Of a DNA stretch of 64,000 nucleotides, positions 22,903 through 61,218 are shown piece after piece (the first letter of the stretch is position 1; the number at the start of each line of letters is the position of its first letter). This stretch comes from Candidatus Bathyarchaeota archaeon. GTDB lineage: Archaea > Thermoproteota > Bathyarchaeia > 40CM-2-53-6. Under the pieces are notes generated by a model. That model did not search any database. It saw nothing but the letters and a program-made list of their open reading frames with translations, and had not been told where the DNA came from. The stretch spans positions 64,001 to 128,000 of the forward strand of contig CAWHWX010000012.1 in assembly GCA_963833125.1 (NCBI GenBank), read 5' to 3'. The translations under genes and the position numbers were made by a program.

Positions 22903-24558
22903 TTGGGGTCTTCAGGGCGATTGCTAGCGATTATTGCCTTATCCATCATGTTCGCCGCTCTCCATGTATCCTACGCATTTGCTGACAACAGCTACACAGT
23001 TACTATCACAGTTCAGGGTTTACCGTCTTCCCTTTCAACGAAAGTCTACGTTGATGGGAGTTATAATGGAACACTGAGCGGTGGGAGCTCAGACACGTTA
23101 ACGCTTTCAATAAATGACAACCCGCATGCCATCTTGGTTGATTCTTATGTGCAAGGGACCGGAAATGGGACACGATATTACGAGAATGATACAGTGTGGG
23201 GTATCAGCTCACCAGGCAGCCATATGTTCACTTACGTCGCTCAATATTTTCTGTCCGTGGAAACCGCCTTTAGCTCAGCTACAGGCCAATCGTGGTACAA
23301 CGCAGGTTCGACTGCTCAGGCCGTGCTTAACGATCAACAAATTGTCGAGGGGCAAGGAACGCGAAACATATTCACAGGTTGGTCTGGCGACGCGACAGGG
23401 ACGCAATTGACTTCGAATGCAATAATTATGGACGGACCAAAGGTCGCAACCGCGAATTGGAAAACCCAGTTTTACTTAACCATTGAATCTAACCCAGCGA
23501 ACGTCACTAGCTTGACAGGTTCTGGGTGGTATGATTCGGGCGTAGACGCTAACTTTTCTGCTGTTATGGTAGCGTCTGGGACATCGAATACGCGCTTGGA
23601 GTTCGATCATTGGAGCGGTGAATACACAGGGCAGCAACCTTCGGGGATGGTGTTGATGGATCGTCCAAAAATTGTCAGTGCCAATTATCTTGTTCAATAC
23701 CTTCTGACCGTTATGTACTCCTCACCGAGCGTTTCATCCTCATACAACGAGACTCACGCAGGTTGGTACGCTGCGAATTCTAGCGTGCAACTCGGGCCCG
23801 CACCATCAATTATCAATTTGAGTACCGTGGAGCGGTTGCGATTTATCGGTTGGTCTGACAACGGTTCTGTATCGAAGAATCTATCGTACTCTGTTTTGGT
23901 AGTTGGGCCACTAAACGTAACTCTCTCCTACACGACGCAATACTATGTTGACGTACGCTCTACATACGGAACGGCTTCCGGTTCGGGTTGGTACGATCGA
24001 GGGACAACCGCAACGATTACCTCCCCAACTACTTCAGGCACCTGGCCCGTTTCGTATGCGCTGACCGGGTGGAGCGTTGACCCGCCCACCGGAACTCTGA
24101 ACAGTACAGAGAATTCGTGGATGTTAACCGTCAATGGGCCATACGTAGTACAGGCAGAATGGGGAGTAGATTACGTCCCACTGATCCTGCTCTTTGGCGG
24201 GAGCGCCGTCGCGTTTGCTGCTGTGGGAGTTACTGCGGTGGTAGTTCACAGGAGGAGTAAAGTTACCGGCAGATCTACTGCTCCTCGCCCGCAAAAAACC
24301 GGCCAGGCTATGTTAGGGTCGCTGGTAGTTTGCAACAGTTGCGGTAACAATGTGCCGAAGGGCGCGGAGTTCTGCGAGAAATGCGGAGCCCCGATCGCGC
24401 CACTCATCGAACCTTCAACGGAGAATAAGGTATACGACTACATCGTAAAACACGAGGGTATAATTTCCTTGAGCGAAGCATCAGCAGATCTTGCGATACC
24501 TGTTGAGCAGCTAAAGGAAATAACTGAGCGTTTGAAGAGAGAGGGCCGTTTAAGTTAG
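22903..24558 (+). CDS. Membrane-anchored surface protein: InlB-B-like repeats, TM, cytoplasmic zinc ribbon and winged helix
   Basis: Signal peptide; repeated GSGWY...F.GWSGD...QY.L.V units; TM; CNSCG...FCEKCG; C-terminal KVYDYIVKHEG...L.REGRL wH. Confidence 0.75.
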   Translation: MGSSGRLLAIIALSIMFAALHVSYAFADNSYTVTITVQGLPSSLSTKVYVDGSYNGTLSGGSSDTLTLSINDNPHAILVDSYVQGTGNGTRYYENDTVWGISSPGSHMFTYVAQYFLSVETAFSSATGQSWYNAGSTAQAVLNDQQIVEGQGTRNIFTGWSGDATGTQLTSNAIIMDGPKVATANWKTQFYLTIESNPANVTSLTGSGWYDSGVDANFSAVMVASGTSNTRLEFDHWSGEYTGQQPSGMVLMDRPKIVSANYLVQYLLTVMYSSPSVSSSYNETHAGWYAANSSVQLGPAPSIINLSTVERLRFIGWSDNGSVSKNLSYSVLVVGPLNVTLSYTTQYYVDVRSTYGTASGSGWYDRGTTATITSPTTSGTWPVSYALTGWSVDPPTGTLNSTENSWMLTVNGPYVVQAEWGVDYVPLILLFGGSAVAFAAVGVTAVVVHRRSKVTGRSTAPRPQKTGQAMLGSLVVCNSCGNNVPKGAEFCEKCGAPIAPLIEPSTENKVYDYIVKHEGIISLSEASADLAIPVEQLKEITERLKREGRLS

Positions 24559-24995
24559 AAGAACGGATTCATGCCGTGTTCTGGTTGCTGGTACGTCGCC
24601 GGGTACTGTTGGTATTGGTACGGTTGGTACTGCTGTTGGTACTGCTGGGACTGCGCACTGAACTTCGGAGCTAGGCTCCAATAGCATTCCATGCAGAAGC
24701 TTAGAACTCCGTATTGCTTGTTGCAACCTGCACAAATCGACCTGCCGCACCGCGAACAAACAAATGCAGATGGTAGGTCATGGTGGTAGTAGCAGCTGCC
24801 CGGAGTTTGGATCTGTCTGGGAGTGTACATTGGAGGGGCTCGTGGGGTTGGAACGGTCTGGCCAGTTAATGGGGATTTCACTTCAACTTTGACTGGGGGA
24901 AATCTTGAAAGTGCAGTGCCGCAACTGAAACAGAATCGTGCGTCCTCGGCGTTTGGTCTGCCGCATGATTGACAGGGAATCATATTCCGAACCAC
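24555..24995 (-). CDS. Zinc-ribbon plus B-box-type zinc-finger protein with Q/Y-rich tail
   Basis: CQSCG...FCFSCG; CYYH-x7-CSRC-x4-CAGC-x9-CMEC. Confidence 0.72.
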   Translation of the reverse strand: MVRNMIPCQSCGRPNAEDARFCFSCGTALSRFPPVKVEVKSPLTGQTVPTPRAPPMYTPRQIQTPGSCYYHHDLPSAFVCSRCGRSICAGCNKQYGVLSFCMECYWSLAPKFSAQSQQYQQQYQPYQYQQYPATYQQPEHGMNPFF

Positions 24996-25142: not shown

Positions 25143-26393
25143 TTAAGTCAATCGAAGTATTGATTCATGGAGTTCTTGGTTCTTGCCCTCAGCCAAGACT
25201 CTCAGGTAATCCCCCCGCTTGCCAGCCCTACGAAGTGGTGATTTACCCTCTATTTTCCGTGTCCCCTCCGAGTTTTCGGCGAAAATCGTGAGCTCTCCAT
25301 CCCCAAGGTTAGACGCTTTACGAATTGATTCTTCTACCGTGGCCTTAGCAGCACGTGGGCTATCTAGCGGTAGGTCGTTTCGCGGGACGACGATCCTTCC
25401 CGTTCCGTCCTTCCCGCAAACAATGCATCGCACGCTTCGTTTGAGATCCATGGTGCTGTAGCGGTTGTTCTTGAGATCGACGAACAGGATTGATCTGAGC
25501 GGTTGACCAGTTGTTTCAGGCCACTTCGTGGTTGTCTTGTATGCCTCTAAACCGAGGATTACTTTGACCGCTTCTTGTGCGAGGATAGACGAGACTAGGG
25601 AAATTGATGTCGCAAAGGAAGGAACGGTTTCTTGTTCCAGGGGTCCCTCGCATGGGTTGCGGAGGCCGGCGATGCTCGAATACTGGTTCGCGGGAAACAT
25701 GCAAACTGGGCAAGCGTCATCGGGTGGTAGGTAGGAGTGAACCCTTCCGTTCAATCCAATAATTCCCGCGTCGATCAGAGGAATTGAGTATTTTCGGCAG
25801 GTTTGAGTAAGGAAGATTCGTGAGACGACATTGTCTAAACCGCAAACGATCACTTGGGAGTCCAGGTAAAGTTTCAATGGCATACGTTCGAGATCGCCGC
25901 GGTAAGCGGTCGTTGTTACGAATGGATACTTCAGATGAAGGTTCTTAGCCAAAAATTCGGCCTTGTTCCTGCCTAAGTCTTTAGGTTGGAAGAAGATCAT
26001 TCGGCTTACGTTTGAGAGTTCGATACGGTCGCGGTCAACAATTACGATTCTCCCGACTCCCAGCATGGCGAGGTTTTTAGCAGCCTCGTTACCTATAGCC
26101 CCCGCGCCCGCCAAAAGCACCGTTGCGCTTCGAATCTTCTTCTGTCCTTCGGCGCCCCAGACAAGTAGTTGCCGAGCCCAGAGATAGTCTAGGATGATTG
26201 GGTCCTTTTCGGTTTTGAGTTTGGCAACGGTTGATGTTTCTGCCAGTCGCTTACCGTGGAACAGGCATTTTGTAAGGTCAGATTCTATGCCTAGTTTTCT
26301 ACAGGCTAATTGTTTGAATTCCCTGATCGTTCTTGTAGGGGGTAGATCAATCTCAATTTCCTTATACCGCGGGATAGACGCACGAAGTTTCAT
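25143..26393 (-). CDS. Ubiquitin-activating enzyme E1-like (N-terminal Ubl domain plus ThiF/E1 adenylation domain)
   Basis: aa 1-70 are ubiquitin-like (TIREFKQ...LFHGKRL..TSTV). WARQ...GQKKI, GAGAIG, DRDRIELSNVSR, GLDN; Zn ligands CPVC and CIVC; candidate catalytic Cys in RNPC (about C248). Confidence 0.88.
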   Translation of the reverse strand: MKLRASIPRYKEIEIDLPPTRTIREFKQLACRKLGIESDLTKCLFHGKRLAETSTVAKLKTEKDPIILDYLWARQLLVWGAEGQKKIRSATVLLAGAGAIGNEAAKNLAMLGVGRIVIVDRDRIELSNVSRMIFFQPKDLGRNKAEFLAKNLHLKYPFVTTTAYRGDLERMPLKLYLDSQVIVCGLDNVVSRIFLTQTCRKYSIPLIDAGIIGLNGRVHSYLPPDDACPVCMFPANQYSSIAGLRNPCEGPLEQETVPSFATSISLVSSILAQEAVKVILGLEAYKTTTKWPETTGQPLRSILFVDLKNNRYSTMDLKRSVRCIVCGKDGTGRIVVPRNDLPLDSPRAAKATVEESIRKASNLGDGELTIFAENSEGTRKIEGKSPLRRAGKRGDYLRVLAEGKNQELHESILRLT

Positions 26394-26986
26394 TATCGCG
26401 GCGTCCGATTGCCCTTACCGGGGATGGTGAACGTCACTAAATCACCAGGTTGAGAGAGTACCGTTGGGGCTCTCGGGATAGGGACTATGTTGAAGTGAAC
26501 GGTATCGTCCGATTCCTCTTTCGCTTTGTGCCTAGTCATTCTCGGAAACCCATGTGATCGGCAAACGTCGGCAGCTTTCAAGGCGCGGGGGTTATCGAAA
26601 ACACTTTGTGGGTTCGGGTCCGTTAGGAGGTAGTGTAGTGAATTGACGACCGAAATTAGTTTGAGCCGTGGGTCCCATTTTTCTCCGAGGACAGATACGC
26701 AAACTGCGTTTGGTATGTTCGGGACAATATTCGGGTGAGAGATATCGGTGAGCCAAGTCGCCACGGGAGGCTTCAATGGATATTCGGGTGGCAGGTCGAG
26801 TTTGAATCGATTCCAGTTCACGTACTCGGTGAAGGGCCAGACTCCTTTCTCGGCAAGTCGTCTCACCTCTCCTTTCTCGCACCGGATTAGGCCCTCGAAT
26901 TGGGTAGGGGGGTCATTTAGCGCTGTGATTGTCGGGAATTGGTGGTTGAGGAGGCTCTTCTCCTTGTAAAGCAGGGTAGCGTCCAA
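26393..26986 (-). CDS. Ubiquitin-conjugating enzyme E2 (UBC fold)
   Basis: LPPEYPLKPP...SHPNI...VC(96)VSVL..KWDP...LLTDPNP.S UBC signature; TAATG overlap with E1. Confidence 0.92.
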   Translation of the reverse strand: MDATLLYKEKSLLNHQFPTITALNDPPTQFEGLIRCEKGEVRRLAEKGVWPFTEYVNWNRFKLDLPPEYPLKPPVATWLTDISHPNIVPNIPNAVCVSVLGEKWDPRLKLISVVNSLHYLLTDPNPQSVFDNPRALKAADVCRSHGFPRMTRHKAKEESDDTVHFNIVPIPRAPTVLSQPGDLVTFTIPGKGNRTPR

Positions 26987-26998
26987 GCGGTTTCAGCC

Positions 26999-27241
26999 CT
27001 ACCCGCCAATTATGTTGTATGGCATGAGGGCGAGTTGCGCATTTTCTGGAATGCCGGATCTCGCTACGGTAGTGCCTTCGTCTAATATTGCGCCTCCGTA
27101 CATGAGAGCGACCGTTGTTGGGTCAACCCCAAATGACGTACACACCTGCTGCTTAATCTCTGCAACCGTGTGGTCAGGGATTACGTCGATCTCTGCCAGA
27201 CCTGTCTGAGGGCCTATGGGGGCTTGAATGAATAATTTCAT
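26999..27241 (-). CDS. Ubiquitin-like protein with free C-terminal GG
   Basis: 80 aa; beta-grasp pattern (IDV.PDHTVAEIKQ...LMYGGAILDEGTTV...GI) ending IIGG-stop; GGAGGTGA RBS at 27252-27259. Confidence 0.88.
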   Translation of the reverse strand: MKLFIQAPIGPQTGLAEIDVIPDHTVAEIKQQVCTSFGVDPTTVALMYGGAILDEGTTVARSGIPENAQLALMPYNIIGG

Positions 27242-27296: not shown

Positions 27297-28835
27297 CTAC
27301 CTTACTGTAAGCTCGACAGTTAGGGCGTGTACGAGCCCGCCTCCAACTGCCTCTATCGTGATAGGGTAGGTCCCTCCCTTTGTAAAGGCTGGTATTGTTA
27401 TTTGGATTGTTATTGTAGTCGTTCCGGGGCCTCCAGGTAGAACAGTCGGGTTGCTTGTCAAGGTATACTTTGCTCCTTGAGGGAGGTTCAGCAAGGTTAT
27501 GTTCACAGGGTCTACGAACCCTTTTTGGAGAGTTAACCTAAGATTAAGTGTCGCCTTTGAACCGGTCTGTACTGTGACACTGGTTGGCGAGATTTGCAGT
27601 GAGAAATCGGCTACCGTTATGTTAAGTACTGTTTGTCTGGTTACATACGGTGATTGAGAGGGTAGGTAGTCGGCAATCAGAGCTATTGGATAGGTGCCGT
27701 TAGGGGTAGTCGAGTCTGCGGTCACATTCAAGCTCACGGTTGTTCCTGTAGGAGCAGGGTTTGTCGAGAATGTGATCGTTAAGCCGCTGGGGTTTCCGTT
27801 GGCCGAGAGCTGGACTTGTTGTGCGAACTCATTGATTGACACTATCTGGATCTTTGTGACTGCATACCTCGTTCTGTACACTGTGAGCGAGCTGGTTTGT
27901 GGTAGGATGTTGAAATCCGCAATGACGATGTGGTATGTGTTCGTGTTGACTTGCTTGCCTGTAGAATCTGATGCTCTGATGTAGTAGGTGATGTTTCCGG
28001 TCACCTGATTACTTGGGATGACGTAGCTGAATTCTCCGGTCCCAATCGAATTCATGGGGACTTGTGTGGTTGGGCCCTCGGTTGCTGGGCCATAAACCAA
28101 GGTTACGTTATGCGCAGGACCAGTTGTGTTGGCAGTAATCGTAATTGGTGTTCCAATGGTCCCTACCGAGACGGGGTTATGAATGATGGCTACCGACGAT
28201 TGCGGGGATGTCTTGTAACTATAGATTAGGCCTCCAAATACTGCCAGCAACACAACCAGAACAACCAAGACCATGGCCAGCGCTGCACGCTTTGTCAGGA
28301 CTTGTCGTGCAGGTGGTCGTCGTCTGACTTCTACAGTCGGCGTGGGCGCTACAACCGTAGCTGTCGTTTGACGCGGTGGGGTGGCGTCCTTTGGATCAGA
28401 GTAAACTATTATGTTCGCTTCGGGGATCCGAATGGCTTTGTCAGTTCCTGGGATCACCCTGAAGTATCCGACTTCTCCGTTTCTTGAATCAACCACCAAG
28501 CCTGTAATCAATGCTGAGAATTGCTGTAACTTTTTTTGAGTTGAAATGTCCGTCTCGGAAAAGAATAATCCATCCCTAGTGTGTGAGTGGTACCATCCTA
28601 CGATGTTGCCTTTGAGGCGTCCAGAAACGAGTTGATCGGCTATGATTGCTATGGAGCCGGGCGGTAGTGTGGCGCGATGAGGTTCGGATGAGAATTCATG
28701 AGTGGTTGAGTCTTCGATGATTATTGTGTCGTCTTGGAGTTTGCCGAGTAGTAGCCCAATAATCTCGGTTTCGGTGTCCCGTGCAGCTTGGACAATCCTG
28801 TCCTTGACAGGTTTCGAGATGCTGACGTAGGACAT
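27297..28835 (-). CDS. JAB/MPN+ metalloprotease fused to a TM helix and external beta-sandwich domains
   Basis: E24...GWYHSH(83,85)-x7-S93-x2-D96 intact JAMM motif; basic linker; TM at aa about 184-205; about 300 aa of Thr/Asn-rich Ig-like repeats (DF.I.P...S.TV...G.Y.I). Confidence 0.88.
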   Translation of the reverse strand: MSYVSISKPVKDRIVQAARDTETEIIGLLLGKLQDDTIIIEDSTTHEFSSEPHRATLPPGSIAIIADQLVSGRLKGNIVGWYHSHTRDGLFFSETDISTQKKLQQFSALITGLVVDSRNGEVGYFRVIPGTDKAIRIPEANIIVYSDPKDATPPRQTTATVVAPTPTVEVRRRPPARQVLTKRAALAMVLVVLVVLLAVFGGLIYSYKTSPQSSVAIIHNPVSVGTIGTPITITANTTGPAHNVTLVYGPATEGPTTQVPMNSIGTGEFSYVIPSNQVTGNITYYIRASDSTGKQVNTNTYHIVIADFNILPQTSSLTVYRTRYAVTKIQIVSINEFAQQVQLSANGNPSGLTITFSTNPAPTGTTVSLNVTADSTTPNGTYPIALIADYLPSQSPYVTRQTVLNITVADFSLQISPTSVTVQTGSKATLNLRLTLQKGFVDPVNITLLNLPQGAKYTLTSNPTVLPGGPGTTTITIQITIPAFTKGGTYPITIEAVGGGLVHALTVELTVR

Positions 28836-29196
28836 GAGTTTGTTTCCCTTTACTTTCTTATCTTATAGCTTGATTGGATGGCCTAATCTTTCGACATAGG
28901 ATGATATGGATTACGCGGTTTCCTGGCGTCCATCTGGGCATTGTATAGAGTGAAGCACAAGATGGGGAGCTGCAGTCTAGCGTTGTGAAGCATGGTTCAA
29001 AGCGAACAGATGTTATTGGGCCCGGGTTAATGGAACAACAGAATCATGGATTAGGGACAGCTTGTGGATGTTTGAAACTATCCAGCAGTTCTAACAATCT
29101 TTTCGGACTGAAGCTCACTAGTCAGCTTTAGGGCTCGCTGGTCCCCACTGGAGACTGAGCGTCCCGGAAGTTTACAGGGAAGAAGTGAAAGATAAG

Positions 29197-29213
29197 AAAA
29201 AAAAATTTGGGGG
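29197..29213 (-). terminator. Archaeal oligo-U terminator of the 29226-30068 gene
   Basis: T9 tract on the minus strand about 20 nt after the stop codon. Confidence 0.5.
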
Positions 29214-29225
29214 TGCCCTACGCTT

Positions 29226-30068
29226 CTATCGTCCAAGCATGCCGAGTATTCCGCCCAGCACACCTAAGACGAAGCCGGCCACAAAGCCTCCACCGATTAT
29301 GAGGCTTAGCACTGCCATCGGGAAGACGACGATGCTTCCGATTGTTCCGTAGCCAAGCAGCATCAGTATTGACCCGATTACCAGTATTAGCCCTATGATT
29401 ACGCCGATTGCGAATGATAGGCTAGCAGGGCCGAGTGCTGGCAACCAGAAGAATACTCCGACCCACATCGCGTAGAACCCAGGCGCAAGCAAAGCTGCTG
29501 CGTTGAGGATTACAAGTATCCCAGCGATTACTGAGAGAATGAATCCCCATAGTGATCTGGGTGACGAGGGGGCGTACATTGGCGGTGGTGGATACACTGG
29601 GTAGGCAGCTGCTGGTGGAGCCATCGGTGGTGGACCGAATGCTGGTCCAGCCATAGGTGGAGCCATCATAGGTGGCGCTGCCATAGGCGGTTGGCTATAG
29701 GATTGAGCCATTGGCTGTTGGGGCGGGCTATAGGCGGCTTGTGCTGGTTGTTGTGCTACCATTGGAACGACTCCTGCGTAACATTGCGGGCACAGGACGA
29801 GATCCATGTATGCTTTTGAGTCATCGCAACAAATCGACCTTCCACAGCGGTTGCAGACGTATACTGCTGGGAGGTTGGGGTGATAATAGCATTGTCCTGG
29901 TGCGGGCACACGAATAGGTCCGCCTTGGCTGACTGGTGTTACTACGCGGACGGATGGGACTGGTTTGAGTGAGGGGACCGCGCTGCCTGCGAGAGATGCT
30001 CCACAGCTTGAACAGAATGATGCGTCATCACGATTGTTGTAGCCGCATGATGGGCATTTCTTGACCAT
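29226..30068 (-). CDS. Zinc-ribbon plus B-box, Pro-rich linker and C-terminal multi-TM membrane protein
   Basis: CPSCG...FCSSCG; CYYH-x7-CNRC-x4-CCDD-x9-CPQC; PPMA-rich linker; about four hydrophobic helices; GGAGG RBS. Confidence 0.75.
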   Translation of the reverse strand: MVKKCPSCGYNNRDDASFCSSCGASLAGSAVPSLKPVPSVRVVTPVSQGGPIRVPAPGQCYYHPNLPAVYVCNRCGRSICCDDSKAYMDLVLCPQCYAGVVPMVAQQPAQAAYSPPQQPMAQSYSQPPMAAPPMMAPPMAGPAFGPPPMAPPAAAYPVYPPPPMYAPSSPRSLWGFILSVIAGILVILNAAALLAPGFYAMWVGVFFWLPALGPASLSFAIGVIIGLILVIGSILMLLGYGTIGSIVVFPMAVLSLIIGGGFVAGFVLGVLGGILGMLGR

Positions 30069-37740: not shown

Positions 37741-37852
37741 TGGTGCCGGGGGCGGGGTTCGAACCCGCGGCTTCTGGGCCCACTGCTTTCCAGATTATGA
37801 GTTTCGTCCCACTAAGCCTGACTGGCGCTCTACCAGGCTGAGCCACCCCGGC
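37741..37852 (-). tRNA. tRNA-Met(CAT), elongator type, with introns at 30/31 (19 nt) and 45/46 (16 nt)
   Basis: Reverse complement: GCCGGGG TG GCTC AGCCTGGTA GAGC G CCAG[TCAGGCTTAGTGGGACGAA]A CT CAT AA TCTGG AA[AGCAGTGGGCCCAGAA]GCC GCGGG TTCGAAC CCCGC CCCCGGC A CCA. Confidence 0.88.
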
Positions 37853-61117: not shown

Positions 61118-61218
61118 TGGTGGGGCCGGCCGGATTTGAACCGGCGGCTTCGCGGTTGCCTCGGAGCAACTCACGCGGGCCCAAGCCGCGTATCATAACC
61201 ATGCTAGACTACGGCCCC
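61118..61218 (-). tRNA. tRNA-Pro(TGG) with a 23-nt intron at 45/46
   Basis: Reverse complement: GGGGCCG TA GTCT AGCATGGTTAT GAT A CGCGG CT TGG GC CCGCG TG[AGTTGCTCCGAGGCAACCGCGAA]GCC GCCGG TTCAAAT CCGGC CGGCCCC A CCA. Perfect BHB. Confidence 0.92.

Follow-up and report, generated by a model that had tools for sequence, protein, structure and literature searches.

Why an archaeal ubiquitin operon should encode a protease joined to a membrane helix and to immunoglobulin (Ig)-like domains is the question raised by a 512-aa gene in the DNA analysed here. The window, i.e., the whole stretch of 64,000 nucleotides, comprises positions 64,001 to 128,000 of contig CAWHWX010000012.1 (assembly GCA_963833125.1, Candidatus Bathyarchaeota archaeon). 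It is archaeal, and its close relatives are titled Candidatus Bathyarchaeia metagenome-assembled genomes (MAGs) from peat, soil, and sediment. The gene, hereafter JAB-TM-Ig3 (TM, transmembrane), occupies 27297..28835 on the reverse strand, stop codon included. The original prediction, made from the sequence alone, described its product as a receptor-like deubiquitinase with a JAMM protease in the cytoplasm and Ig-like domains outside, in which an external cue could control deconjugation.

We retain the architecture and find no direct support for control by an external cue. With a probability of roughly 0.72, the protein is an Rpn11-like deubiquitinase tethered to the membrane and part of a membrane-associated ubiquitin module in a soil/peat Bathyarchaeia archaeon. 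A flexible segment of ~30 residues would keep its JAMM head at the cytoplasmic face of the membrane, the zinc site would bind the C-terminal tail of ubiquitin, and ubiquitin would be cleaved off conjugates formed at or near the membrane. Deubiquitination would then be confined to membrane-proximal substrates, e.g., membrane proteins and possibly the products of neighbouring genes. The role of the ectodomain would be to position or retain the enzyme in the envelope rather than to serve as an obligatory sensor.

Architecture and conservation of the JAB-TM-Ig3 protein

Residues 1-150 (28386..28835, -) constitute the JAMM/MPN+ head, which is predicted to be cytoplasmic. This part scored 43.3 bits against Pfam JAB (PF01398; cut-off 22.5, E 3.6e-11) and 38.6 bits against Prok-JAB (cut-off 25). 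On the translation, the catalytic residues were E24 (in EIIGLLLG), H83-S84-H85, S93, and D96 (in GWYHSHTRDGLFFSETD), exactly at the positions given in the original prediction. H83, H85, S93, and D96 were invariant in all 70 relatives compared. The closest solved sequence was that of the Caldiarchaeum Rpn11-like protein (6fjv, E 1.2e-11), and further matches were CSN5 (3.2e-10), Rpn11 (9.1e-07), and BRCC36 (0.004). When the modelled head (pLDDT ~90) was used for a Foldseek search, 6fnn_A was matched with a target-normalised template modelling score of 0.83, a root-mean-square deviation of 2.3, and 29% identity, and 5u4p_B with a score of 0.79. Judged by profile, motif (E...HxH-x7-S-x2-D), and predicted fold together, the head belongs to the JAMM/MPN+ family.

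Subsequently, residues 1-150 were modelled as a complex with the ubiquitin encoded in the operon. The complex score was 0.87, compared with 0.01 for the best control; 58 of 80 solved complexes and 2 of 110 mismatched pairs attain the mark applied to this score. The runs agreed in at least 99% of the contacts with a partner pLDDT of at least 89, and ubiquitin residues 73-80 contacted E24, H83, H85, S93, and D96. This docking may show likeness to the solved complex of the Caldiarchaeum subterraneum enzyme (CsRpn11) with ubiquitin (6fnn) rather than binding by this copy. Motif and docking model together suggest that the head is active on the operon ubiquitin.

The only other JAB found in the genome with the JAB-TM-Ig query was a soluble 145-aa MPN+ paralogue (G000:C16:269840-270277; L097 5840-6277, -), which is 38% identical to the head and occurs in most of the related genomes searched. 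It is flanked by open reading frames (ORFs) of 210 and 247 aa, and an ATPase-like 596-aa ORF lies ~2 kb away. No ORF for ubiquitin, E1, or E2 was evident beside it when the neighbours were read by eye, with no family search.

Behind the head, the protein has the parts that the original prediction listed, i.e., a Pro/Thr linker, a basic run, one hydrophobic helix, and ~300 Thr-rich residues. The linker (residues 151-183; 28287..28385, -) ends in the basic stretch RRRPPARQVLTKR and is predicted to be disordered, with pLDDT <50 for residues 156-180. The single TM helix (residues 184-208; 28212..28286, -) contains the sole hydrophobic segment of the protein, with a Kyte-Doolittle maximum of 3.16 at residues 186-204, and the AlphaFold2 model places a helix at 182-209. 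This model, built with 70 homologues, had a mean pLDDT of 87.6 and resolved the predicted beta-sandwich repeats into three domains at residues 215-305, 306-408, and 410-512. Threonine makes up 17.2% of the C-terminal ~300 residues.

The three domains differ in their relatives. Ig-like domain 1 (27921..28193, -) is family-specific, carries glycosylation sequons at 236 and 243, and has nearly invariant positions. Ig-like domains 2 (27612..27920, -) and 3 (residues 409-512; 27300..27611, -) belong to a region (residues ~300-511) with homologous repeats, as many as 30 in one protein, among proteins 1000-3500 aa long; domain 3 also gave weak NPCBM_assoc/PKD matches. These giant proteins additionally carry Kelch, cohesin, and NEW3/BiPBP_C/DUF5980-type domains, which by their sequence families is the make-up of surface proteins. 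In a Foldseek search, the part of the model outside the MPN domain matched generic tandem Ig structures. Among the 70 relatives, mean identity was 66% in the JAB domain, the best conserved part, 46-51% in the Ig domains, and 32% in the TM helix.

The topology was deduced from hydropathy, charge counts, and the AlphaFold2 helix. The 15 residues before the helix contain six K/R and the 15 after it one; in the 70 homologues, the means of K+R were 4.4 on the N-terminal side and 1.0 on the C-terminal side, with an excess on the N-terminal side in 69 of 70. An N-terminal signal peptide is absent, and the conserved start MSYVSI runs directly into the MPN fold, consistent with the helix serving as a signal anchor with the N-terminus inside. 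The original prediction counted at least seven N-x-S/T sequons and none in the JAB part; there are exactly seven (NTT236, NVT243, NIT281, NVT370, NGT379, NIT405, and NIT445), every one C-terminal of the helix. Across the 70 related sequences, which are not independent of one another, 351 sequons were observed outside and 224 after shuffling, and inside 30 and 43.8, respectively. The corresponding densities were 1.61 per 100 aa outside and 0.23 inside. Position 236 is a sequon in 59 of 70, position 243 in 55, and position 379 in 46, and the genome encodes an STT3/AglB homologue. Because of the charge bias, the conserved sequons, and the cytoplasmic, ATP-dependent partners ubiquitin, E1, and E2, the orientation originally predicted appears to be correct: we infer a single-pass type II protein with the N-terminal JAB inside and the Ig-like C-terminus outside, the latter being a predicted glycosylated stalk of three domains.

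The gene is a 512-aa ORF without an internal stop, and its full length recurs widely. In a word-indexed search of 5.8 billion protein clusters, 8000 candidates were scored and 444 of them had E ≤0.001. Of the best 120, which were listed, 112 covered at least 98% of the query (44-100% identity, 501-534 aa), and these came from NCBI, JGI, ENA, and Logan assemblies. When 50%-identity representatives were searched exhaustively with HMMER, 3045 proteins had E ≤0.001, and full-length relatives extended down to ~29% identity. An uninterrupted full-length match was present in 22 of 41 genomes (that of the window and 40 relatives; rows read by eye). Furthermore, the JAB-TM junction, at which the original prediction had considered a split, is crossed without a gap by an 814-nt DNA contig of another run, which spans 27654-28467, from the end of JAB through the linker and TM helix to Ig-like domains 1 and 2. 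This check was made on Logan contigs from four runs, none of which contained half of the sampled words. Contigs of the RNA libraries X4 and X6 (90% likeness) covered only the ubiquitin gene and the 3' end of the gene upstream of JAB-TM-Ig3, and not the JAB-TM gene; stretches left bare by such contigs are uninformative on expression of the JAB gene.

The family comprises more than 100 protein clusters at 90% identity and is abundant in Bathyarchaeia of soil, peat, and sediment. The ESM Atlas returned only the protein's own cluster of 63 members, labelled JAB and mostly from Bathyarchaeota. Where the source databases name the homologues, they are labelled "proteasome lid subunit RPN8/RPN11" or "Mov34/MPN/PAD-1 family protein", and these labels conceal the membrane and Ig architecture.

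The ubiquitin operon and its membrane components

The JAB-TM-Ig3 gene is the second of a conserved block of seven genes, encoding, in order, a 280-aa membrane protein, JAB-TM-Ig3, ubiquitin, E2, E1, a 146-aa protein, and a convergent 551-aa protein. The first five are kept in this order in 27 loci (L002-L012, L014-L028, and L031), some pairs of which come from one genome; a further two loci with a membrane JAB run into the end of their contig. Of the 40 relatives, 34 had an E2 (E ≤1e-20), and 33 of these 34 genomes had a JAB-TM or TM-Ig match at E ≤1.4e-20 (rows read by eye). The remaining genome, G034, reached only 1.4e-14, and in another, G009, a contig end beside E2 truncates the match. None of the six genomes without E2 held such a match, their best matches being the soluble paralogue or Ig repeats. 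The JAB-TM-Ig architecture is thus found in other genomes alongside ubiquitin and E2, a co-occurrence that the original prediction had raised.

Ubiquitin (80 aa; 26999..27241, -; PF00240, E 2.2e-09) ends in NIIGG followed by the stop codon and, by this C-terminal GG, is already mature; it is 79-99% identical among Bathyarchaeia loci. E2 (UQ_con, 197 aa; 26393..26986, -; PF00179, E 3e-16) has an HPN motif and a cysteine. E1 (ThiF, 416 aa; 25143..26393, -; PF00899, E 9.4e-50) has a ubiquitin-like domain of PF00240 at residues 10-67 (E 1.1e-06), N-terminal of ThiF; the Caldiarchaeum E1 is described with a C-terminal ubiquitin-like domain in a figure legend of PMC5654768.

Three components of the module are membrane-bound, namely JAB-TM-Ig3, the 280-aa protein, and the 551-aa protein. 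The 280-aa protein (29226..30068, -), encoded immediately upstream of the JAB gene in the compared loci, consists of a zinc ribbon, a B-box-like region, a Pro-rich linker, and ~4 helices, which were modelled at a pLDDT of 80-90. Its set C5, C8, C19, C22, C60, H63, C72, C75, C80, D83, C93, and C96 is invariant or nearly so. The soluble 146-aa protein (24555..24995, -; Zn_Ribbon_1, E 3.4e-06) is conserved in its position. The two are paralogous, sharing the N-terminal zinc ribbon and a second cluster, C-x2-H-x8-C-x2-C-x4-C-x2-D-x9-C-x2-C, with a nearly invariant motif KPVPSVRVVTP between the two fingers. In 22 sequences, six of the eight positions of the second-cluster pattern were invariant and two nearly so. 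The cluster resembles a B-box/RING-like binuclear finger in its spacing, and both proteins are candidate E3s or adaptors of the module.

The 551-aa protein (22903..24558, +) starts with a hydrophobic signal-like N-terminus, followed by an ectodomain of InlB-B repeats (PF18998, E 8.7e-10), a TM helix, a cytoplasmic zinc ribbon (Zn_Ribbon_1 at 477-498), and a helical tail of 45 aa. In some lineages the ectodomain is replaced (forms of 650-703 aa), and the zinc ribbon is sometimes absent. The tail, LDExVYxYIVKHxGVISLSxASxDLG..ELK.STERLK..GRL, was kept in 17 of 17 aligned relatives (loci L012-L025 and L092-L096), and its sequence looks like a small helix-turn-helix or winged-helix unit. A profile search of the tail against PDB sequences gave nothing significant, the top match being a designed repeat of which no single stretch passed by itself. 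The winged-helix fragment of Sulfolobus ESCRT-III (2xvc) was aligned over the full domain at E 0.71, which we regard as a lead only.

An integral-membrane protease and two further membrane components point to the membrane or envelope as the place of action, and the place of action in turn points to the class of candidate substrates. It is conceivable, though doubtful, that the seven genes form a self-contained membrane-integrated pathway in which the polytopic B-box-like protein is a membrane E3, the 551-aa protein is a surface sensor or substrate, and JAB-TM-Ig3 is the opposing, envelope-positioned deubiquitinase. If this were true, the block would be the archaeal equivalent of a system in which ubiquitin controls the turnover of membrane proteins or is needed for the release of a factor tethered to the membrane, and it would amount to ubiquitin-based signalling across a prokaryotic membrane. 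To our knowledge, Caldiarchaeum is the only source from which a eukaryote-like ubiquitin system of archaea has been reconstituted; its parts are soluble, and its cellular targets are not known. The membrane cluster is hence a testable entry to the role of ubiquitin in an archaeon. In full-text searches of a literature collection with few subscription journals and no supplements, and in look-ups within PMC6043591, PMC11354881, PMC5654768, PMC4594999, PMC4327156, and PMC9534799, we found neither a membrane-anchored JAMM described for an archaeal ubiquitin operon nor any account of a Bathyarchaeia ubiquitin operon. PMC9534799 only names an M67 isopeptidase among the peptidases of Bathyarchaeota.

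Several further observations concern the locus and the window. A spacer of 390 nt separates the JAB gene from the gene upstream, as against ~57 nt in many relatives, and a DNA contig from run X2 connects 28879 directly to 29197, omitting 317 nt of the spacer. A repeat in this spacer was considered and rejected, since 28860-29200 is unique in the genome. This archaeal operon, or its soluble JAB paralogue, also appears on contigs assigned to bacterial bins, namely Nitrospiraceae, Methylomirabilota, and Terriglobales (L011, L048, and protein P0056). The JAB-TM, ubiquitin, E2, and start-of-E1 genes of L011 are 61-98% identical to those of the window, and such contigs are probably mis-binned. Elsewhere in the window, Rfam matched two long tRNA genes missed by ARAGORN, at 37744-37852 (-, 109 nt) and 61121-61218 (-, 98 nt), which are probably intron-bearing.

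Variants of the architecture and rival readings

The part that follows the JAB domain is not constant at the operon position. In four loci of the same genus (L018, L019, L020, and L024), JAB is joined to a polytopic DUF998 domain (E 6.7e-21) instead of TM-Ig3, and the operon is otherwise identical. In a quick tree of JAB sequences, these forms were nested within the Ig-type clade of the genus with SH-aLRT support of 97-98; deep relations among the Bathyarchaeia membrane forms, the soluble paralogues of 143-150 aa, and the Thermoplasmata forms are unsettled on this tree. In two Thermoplasmata loci, the TM helix behind JAB leads to a different ectodomain, rich in sequons and with a Big_7-like domain; the genes for ubiquitin, E2, and E1 come next. 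In another Bathyarchaeia family, L095 (G051:C5, 6003-6944, -) encodes a tail-anchored JAB of 212 aa without an ectodomain, and its ubiquitin ends in GGTL and, judged by this ending, would be a pro-form that needs processing, unlike the ubiquitin of the window. In family f2 (L092-L094; genomes G025, G123, and G119), the product encoded between ubiquitin and the Zn-ribbon membrane protein upstream has a short Pro/Arg-rich N-terminus, a TM helix, and three Ig domains but no JAB (388 aa in L092). Two bacterial records, L039 and L084, have a JAB and then one hydrophobic helix. The JAB of the operon is thus combined with four or more kinds of membrane or outside part, and TM-Ig3 is found without JAB; therefore, the theme shared by these variants is tethering and not coupling of Ig to JAB.

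Three further proteins have a hydrophobic segment after the MPN domain, from a Helarchaeota (Asgard) MAG (L069, 241 aa), a Deferrimicrobium MAG (L061, 244 aa), and a Thermoproteales MAG (L036, >538 aa). Their sequences suggest that membrane-anchored JAMM forms occur beyond Bathyarchaeia, including in an Asgard MAG.

Several findings weigh against a membrane-tethered deubiquitinase as described at the outset. Position 24 is E in 63 of the 70 full-length relatives, Q in 5, and R in 2; the seven replacements of the catalytic Glu are all in a distant branch, and these proteins may be inactive or altered enzymes. Since Glu24 is lost in these relatives and one family has no JAB, catalysis is dispensable at the operon position in some lineages. 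The operon ubiquitin ends in GG, and accordingly the role of CsRpn11 in pro-ubiquitin processing is not applicable here. Not all Bathyarchaeia have the cluster: of 151 genomes sampled evenly from the class, 22 matched at E ≤1e-25, nearly all of them in the window's own order. The seven sequons of the ectodomain compare with 4.7 after shuffling, and at least seven were obtained in 16% of 2000 shuffles, so that the query's own count is not significant; the contrast between its two sides largely reflects the Asn content, i.e., 20 outside and 3 inside. As for the neighbours, the B-box assignment is based on the Cys/His pattern and on Pfam matches below threshold (E 0.012 and 0.082, the former being zf-B_box for the 146-aa protein). 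The AlphaFold2 model of the B-box-like region was poor, the 280-aa protein having a mean pLDDT of 64.5 and values <50 over most of its Zn-finger region (29-59, 62-69, and 80-115).

Among the rival readings, the one that survives best is receptor-like signalling. A ligand, virion, or envelope component at the Ig domains would alter clustering or orientation and thereby switch deubiquitination on or off, and the convergent surface protein with its cytoplasmic tail may be a co-receptor or substrate. The protein has the predicted topology of a single-pass receptor, its ectodomain retains 46-51% mean identity among relatives, and domain 1 is specific to the family with many nearly invariant positions. 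The neighbours are also consistent with signalling: the conserved 551-aa protein combines a variable ectodomain with a TM helix and a conserved cytoplasmic tail, and the 280-aa protein links a Zn domain in the cytoplasm to a domain in the membrane. However, the ~25-30 residues between JAB and the helix have a pLDDT <50 and would be a poor conduit for allostery, and the ectodomain is exchanged for DUF998 within the same genus, in the nested position described above. The JAB of a more distant lineage is tail-anchored without any ectodomain, one family keeps TM-Ig3 without JAB, and domains 2 and 3 are of a generic surface-repeat type, with up to 30 copies in giant surface proteins. No ligand-binding feature was identified in the protein. 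Furthermore, the ectodomain of the 551-aa protein is replaced where Ig3 persists, which lowers the prior for a complex between the two ectodomains. Because of the modular variants and the disordered tether, the receptor reading is weakened, and we consider it unlikely. The external control of deconjugation put forward in the original prediction lacks direct support, and the disordered linker, the swapped or absent ectodomain, the JAB-less TM-Ig3, and the generic domains 2 and 3 all speak against it. Clustering could nevertheless regulate the JAB enzyme.

An envelope scaffold is a less probable reading still, and we give it little credence. TM-Ig3 would then be the primary unit, organising membrane proteins, and JAB would mainly bind ubiquitin, with catalysis secondary. 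Family f2, in which a JAB-less TM-Ig3 occupies the same operon slot, fits this reading, as do the seven relatives that have lost the catalytic Glu and retained the zinc ligands; the soluble 145-aa paralogue encoded elsewhere in the genome could provide the activity in trans. In this protein, however, all five catalytic residues are intact, the ubiquitin tail docks at the active site in the model, and JAB is better conserved (66%) than the Ig domains (46-51%).

It is very improbable that the locus is an antiviral module of the type of Bil or CBASS Cap2/Cap3, in which the outside domains would meet virions and ubiquitin would tag viral proteins as they enter or assemble at the membrane. An antiviral role is attributed to bacterial E1/E2/JAB operons in 10.1101/2023.09.26.559546. 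The patchiness of the module at the class level (22/151) and the variation of its membrane and outside parts would suit defence. In a PADLOC search, however, only the E1 adenylation region was matched, and this partially, with no family for JAB, ubiquitin, E2, or the three neighbours. The stable single-copy synteny across an order with ubiquitin 79-99% identical is unlike typical defence islands, and no nuclease or other effector gene lies within the conserved block. A known anti-phage system with a ubiquitin-like protein, i.e., Bil or CBASS with E1-E2/JAB, was accordingly rejected because the component models were unmatched.

Finally, a chimera or frameshift, in which assembly or gene calling would have wrongly fused a soluble JAB gene to a downstream surface-protein gene, has next to no probability: a few relatives are split or interrupted (G036 with TGA, G028 in two pieces, and G016 with TAG near the 5' end), but the fusion recurs in 112 of the 120 listed protein clusters from several assembly sources, is stop-free in 22 of 41 related genomes, and is crossed gap-free by an independent DNA contig.

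Comparison with known systems

The best solved match, CsRpn11 (6fjv and 6fnn), has the same MPN+ fold as the JAB head. Both enzymes are found with an archaeal operon for eukaryote-like ubiquitin, E1, and E2, and the predicted docking of the ubiquitin tail agrees with the solved complex. According to PMC5654768 and PMC6043591, CsRpn11 is soluble, is transcribed divergently beside the operon, and matures pro-ubiquitin. The Bathyarchaeia enzyme differs in having a TM helix and three predicted outside Ig-like domains, in being encoded co-directionally with ubiquitin, E2, and E1, and in accompanying a ubiquitin that ends in GG. In the quick tree, the enzymes of Aigarchaeota grouped apart from the membrane forms of Bathyarchaeia. 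A soluble pro-ubiquitin protease of the CsRpn11 type was thus rejected, as the TM helix is present and the GG of ubiquitin is followed directly by the stop.

Eukaryotic Rpn11/PSMD14, CSN5, BRCC36, and AMSH have the catalytic motif and the MPN+ fold in common with the JAB head. Rpn11/PSMD14, CSN5, and BRCC36 are soluble subunits of larger complexes, and AMSH is recruited peripherally to endosomes. We know of none among these four with an integral TM helix or an extracellular part. An Rpn11 of the proteasome lid was rejected, since after residue 150 the linker, TM helix, and Ig domains stand in place of the lid helices, and neither an Rpn8-like MPN- partner nor a second MPN gene was found within the conserved block. 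The statement of the original prediction that known JAMM proteases are soluble holds for the solved relatives, i.e., the Caldiarchaeum Rpn11-like protein, CSN5, Rpn11, and BRCC36, and the literature within the scope given above contained no membrane-anchored archaeal JAMM.

Deubiquitinases fixed to membranes are known from eukaryotes, in which USP30 (mitochondria) and USP19 (endoplasmic reticulum) are TM-anchored cysteine enzymes. As is proposed for JAB-TM-Ig3, they act on membrane-proximal conjugates. They differ in their USP catalytic fold and in their short non-cytoplasmic parts, as compared with the Ig stalk of 300 aa here. A membrane-fixed deubiquitinase, known from the organelles of eukaryotes, would thus have been reached independently with a JAMM enzyme.

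BilC and CBASS Cap3 are likewise JAB proteases encoded with E1, E2, and a ubiquitin-like protein, and both are soluble. In the present module, JAB, ubiquitin, and E2 are unmatched by the PADLOC models, and the gene order is stable across an order of archaea. The haloarchaeal desampylase HvJAMM1 (PMC4443979) is an archaeal JAMM/MPN+ enzyme that removes a ubiquitin-like protein, as is proposed for the present one. It differs in being soluble and in belonging to a SAMP system with E1 only and without E2. The JAB head matched the NCBIfam desampylase model only below threshold (23.2 bits, cut-off 130). Taken together, these comparisons indicate that the JAB-TM-Ig form is distinct from the characterised JAMM enzymes in its predicted membrane anchor and outside Ig domains, whereas the head itself is of a known family.

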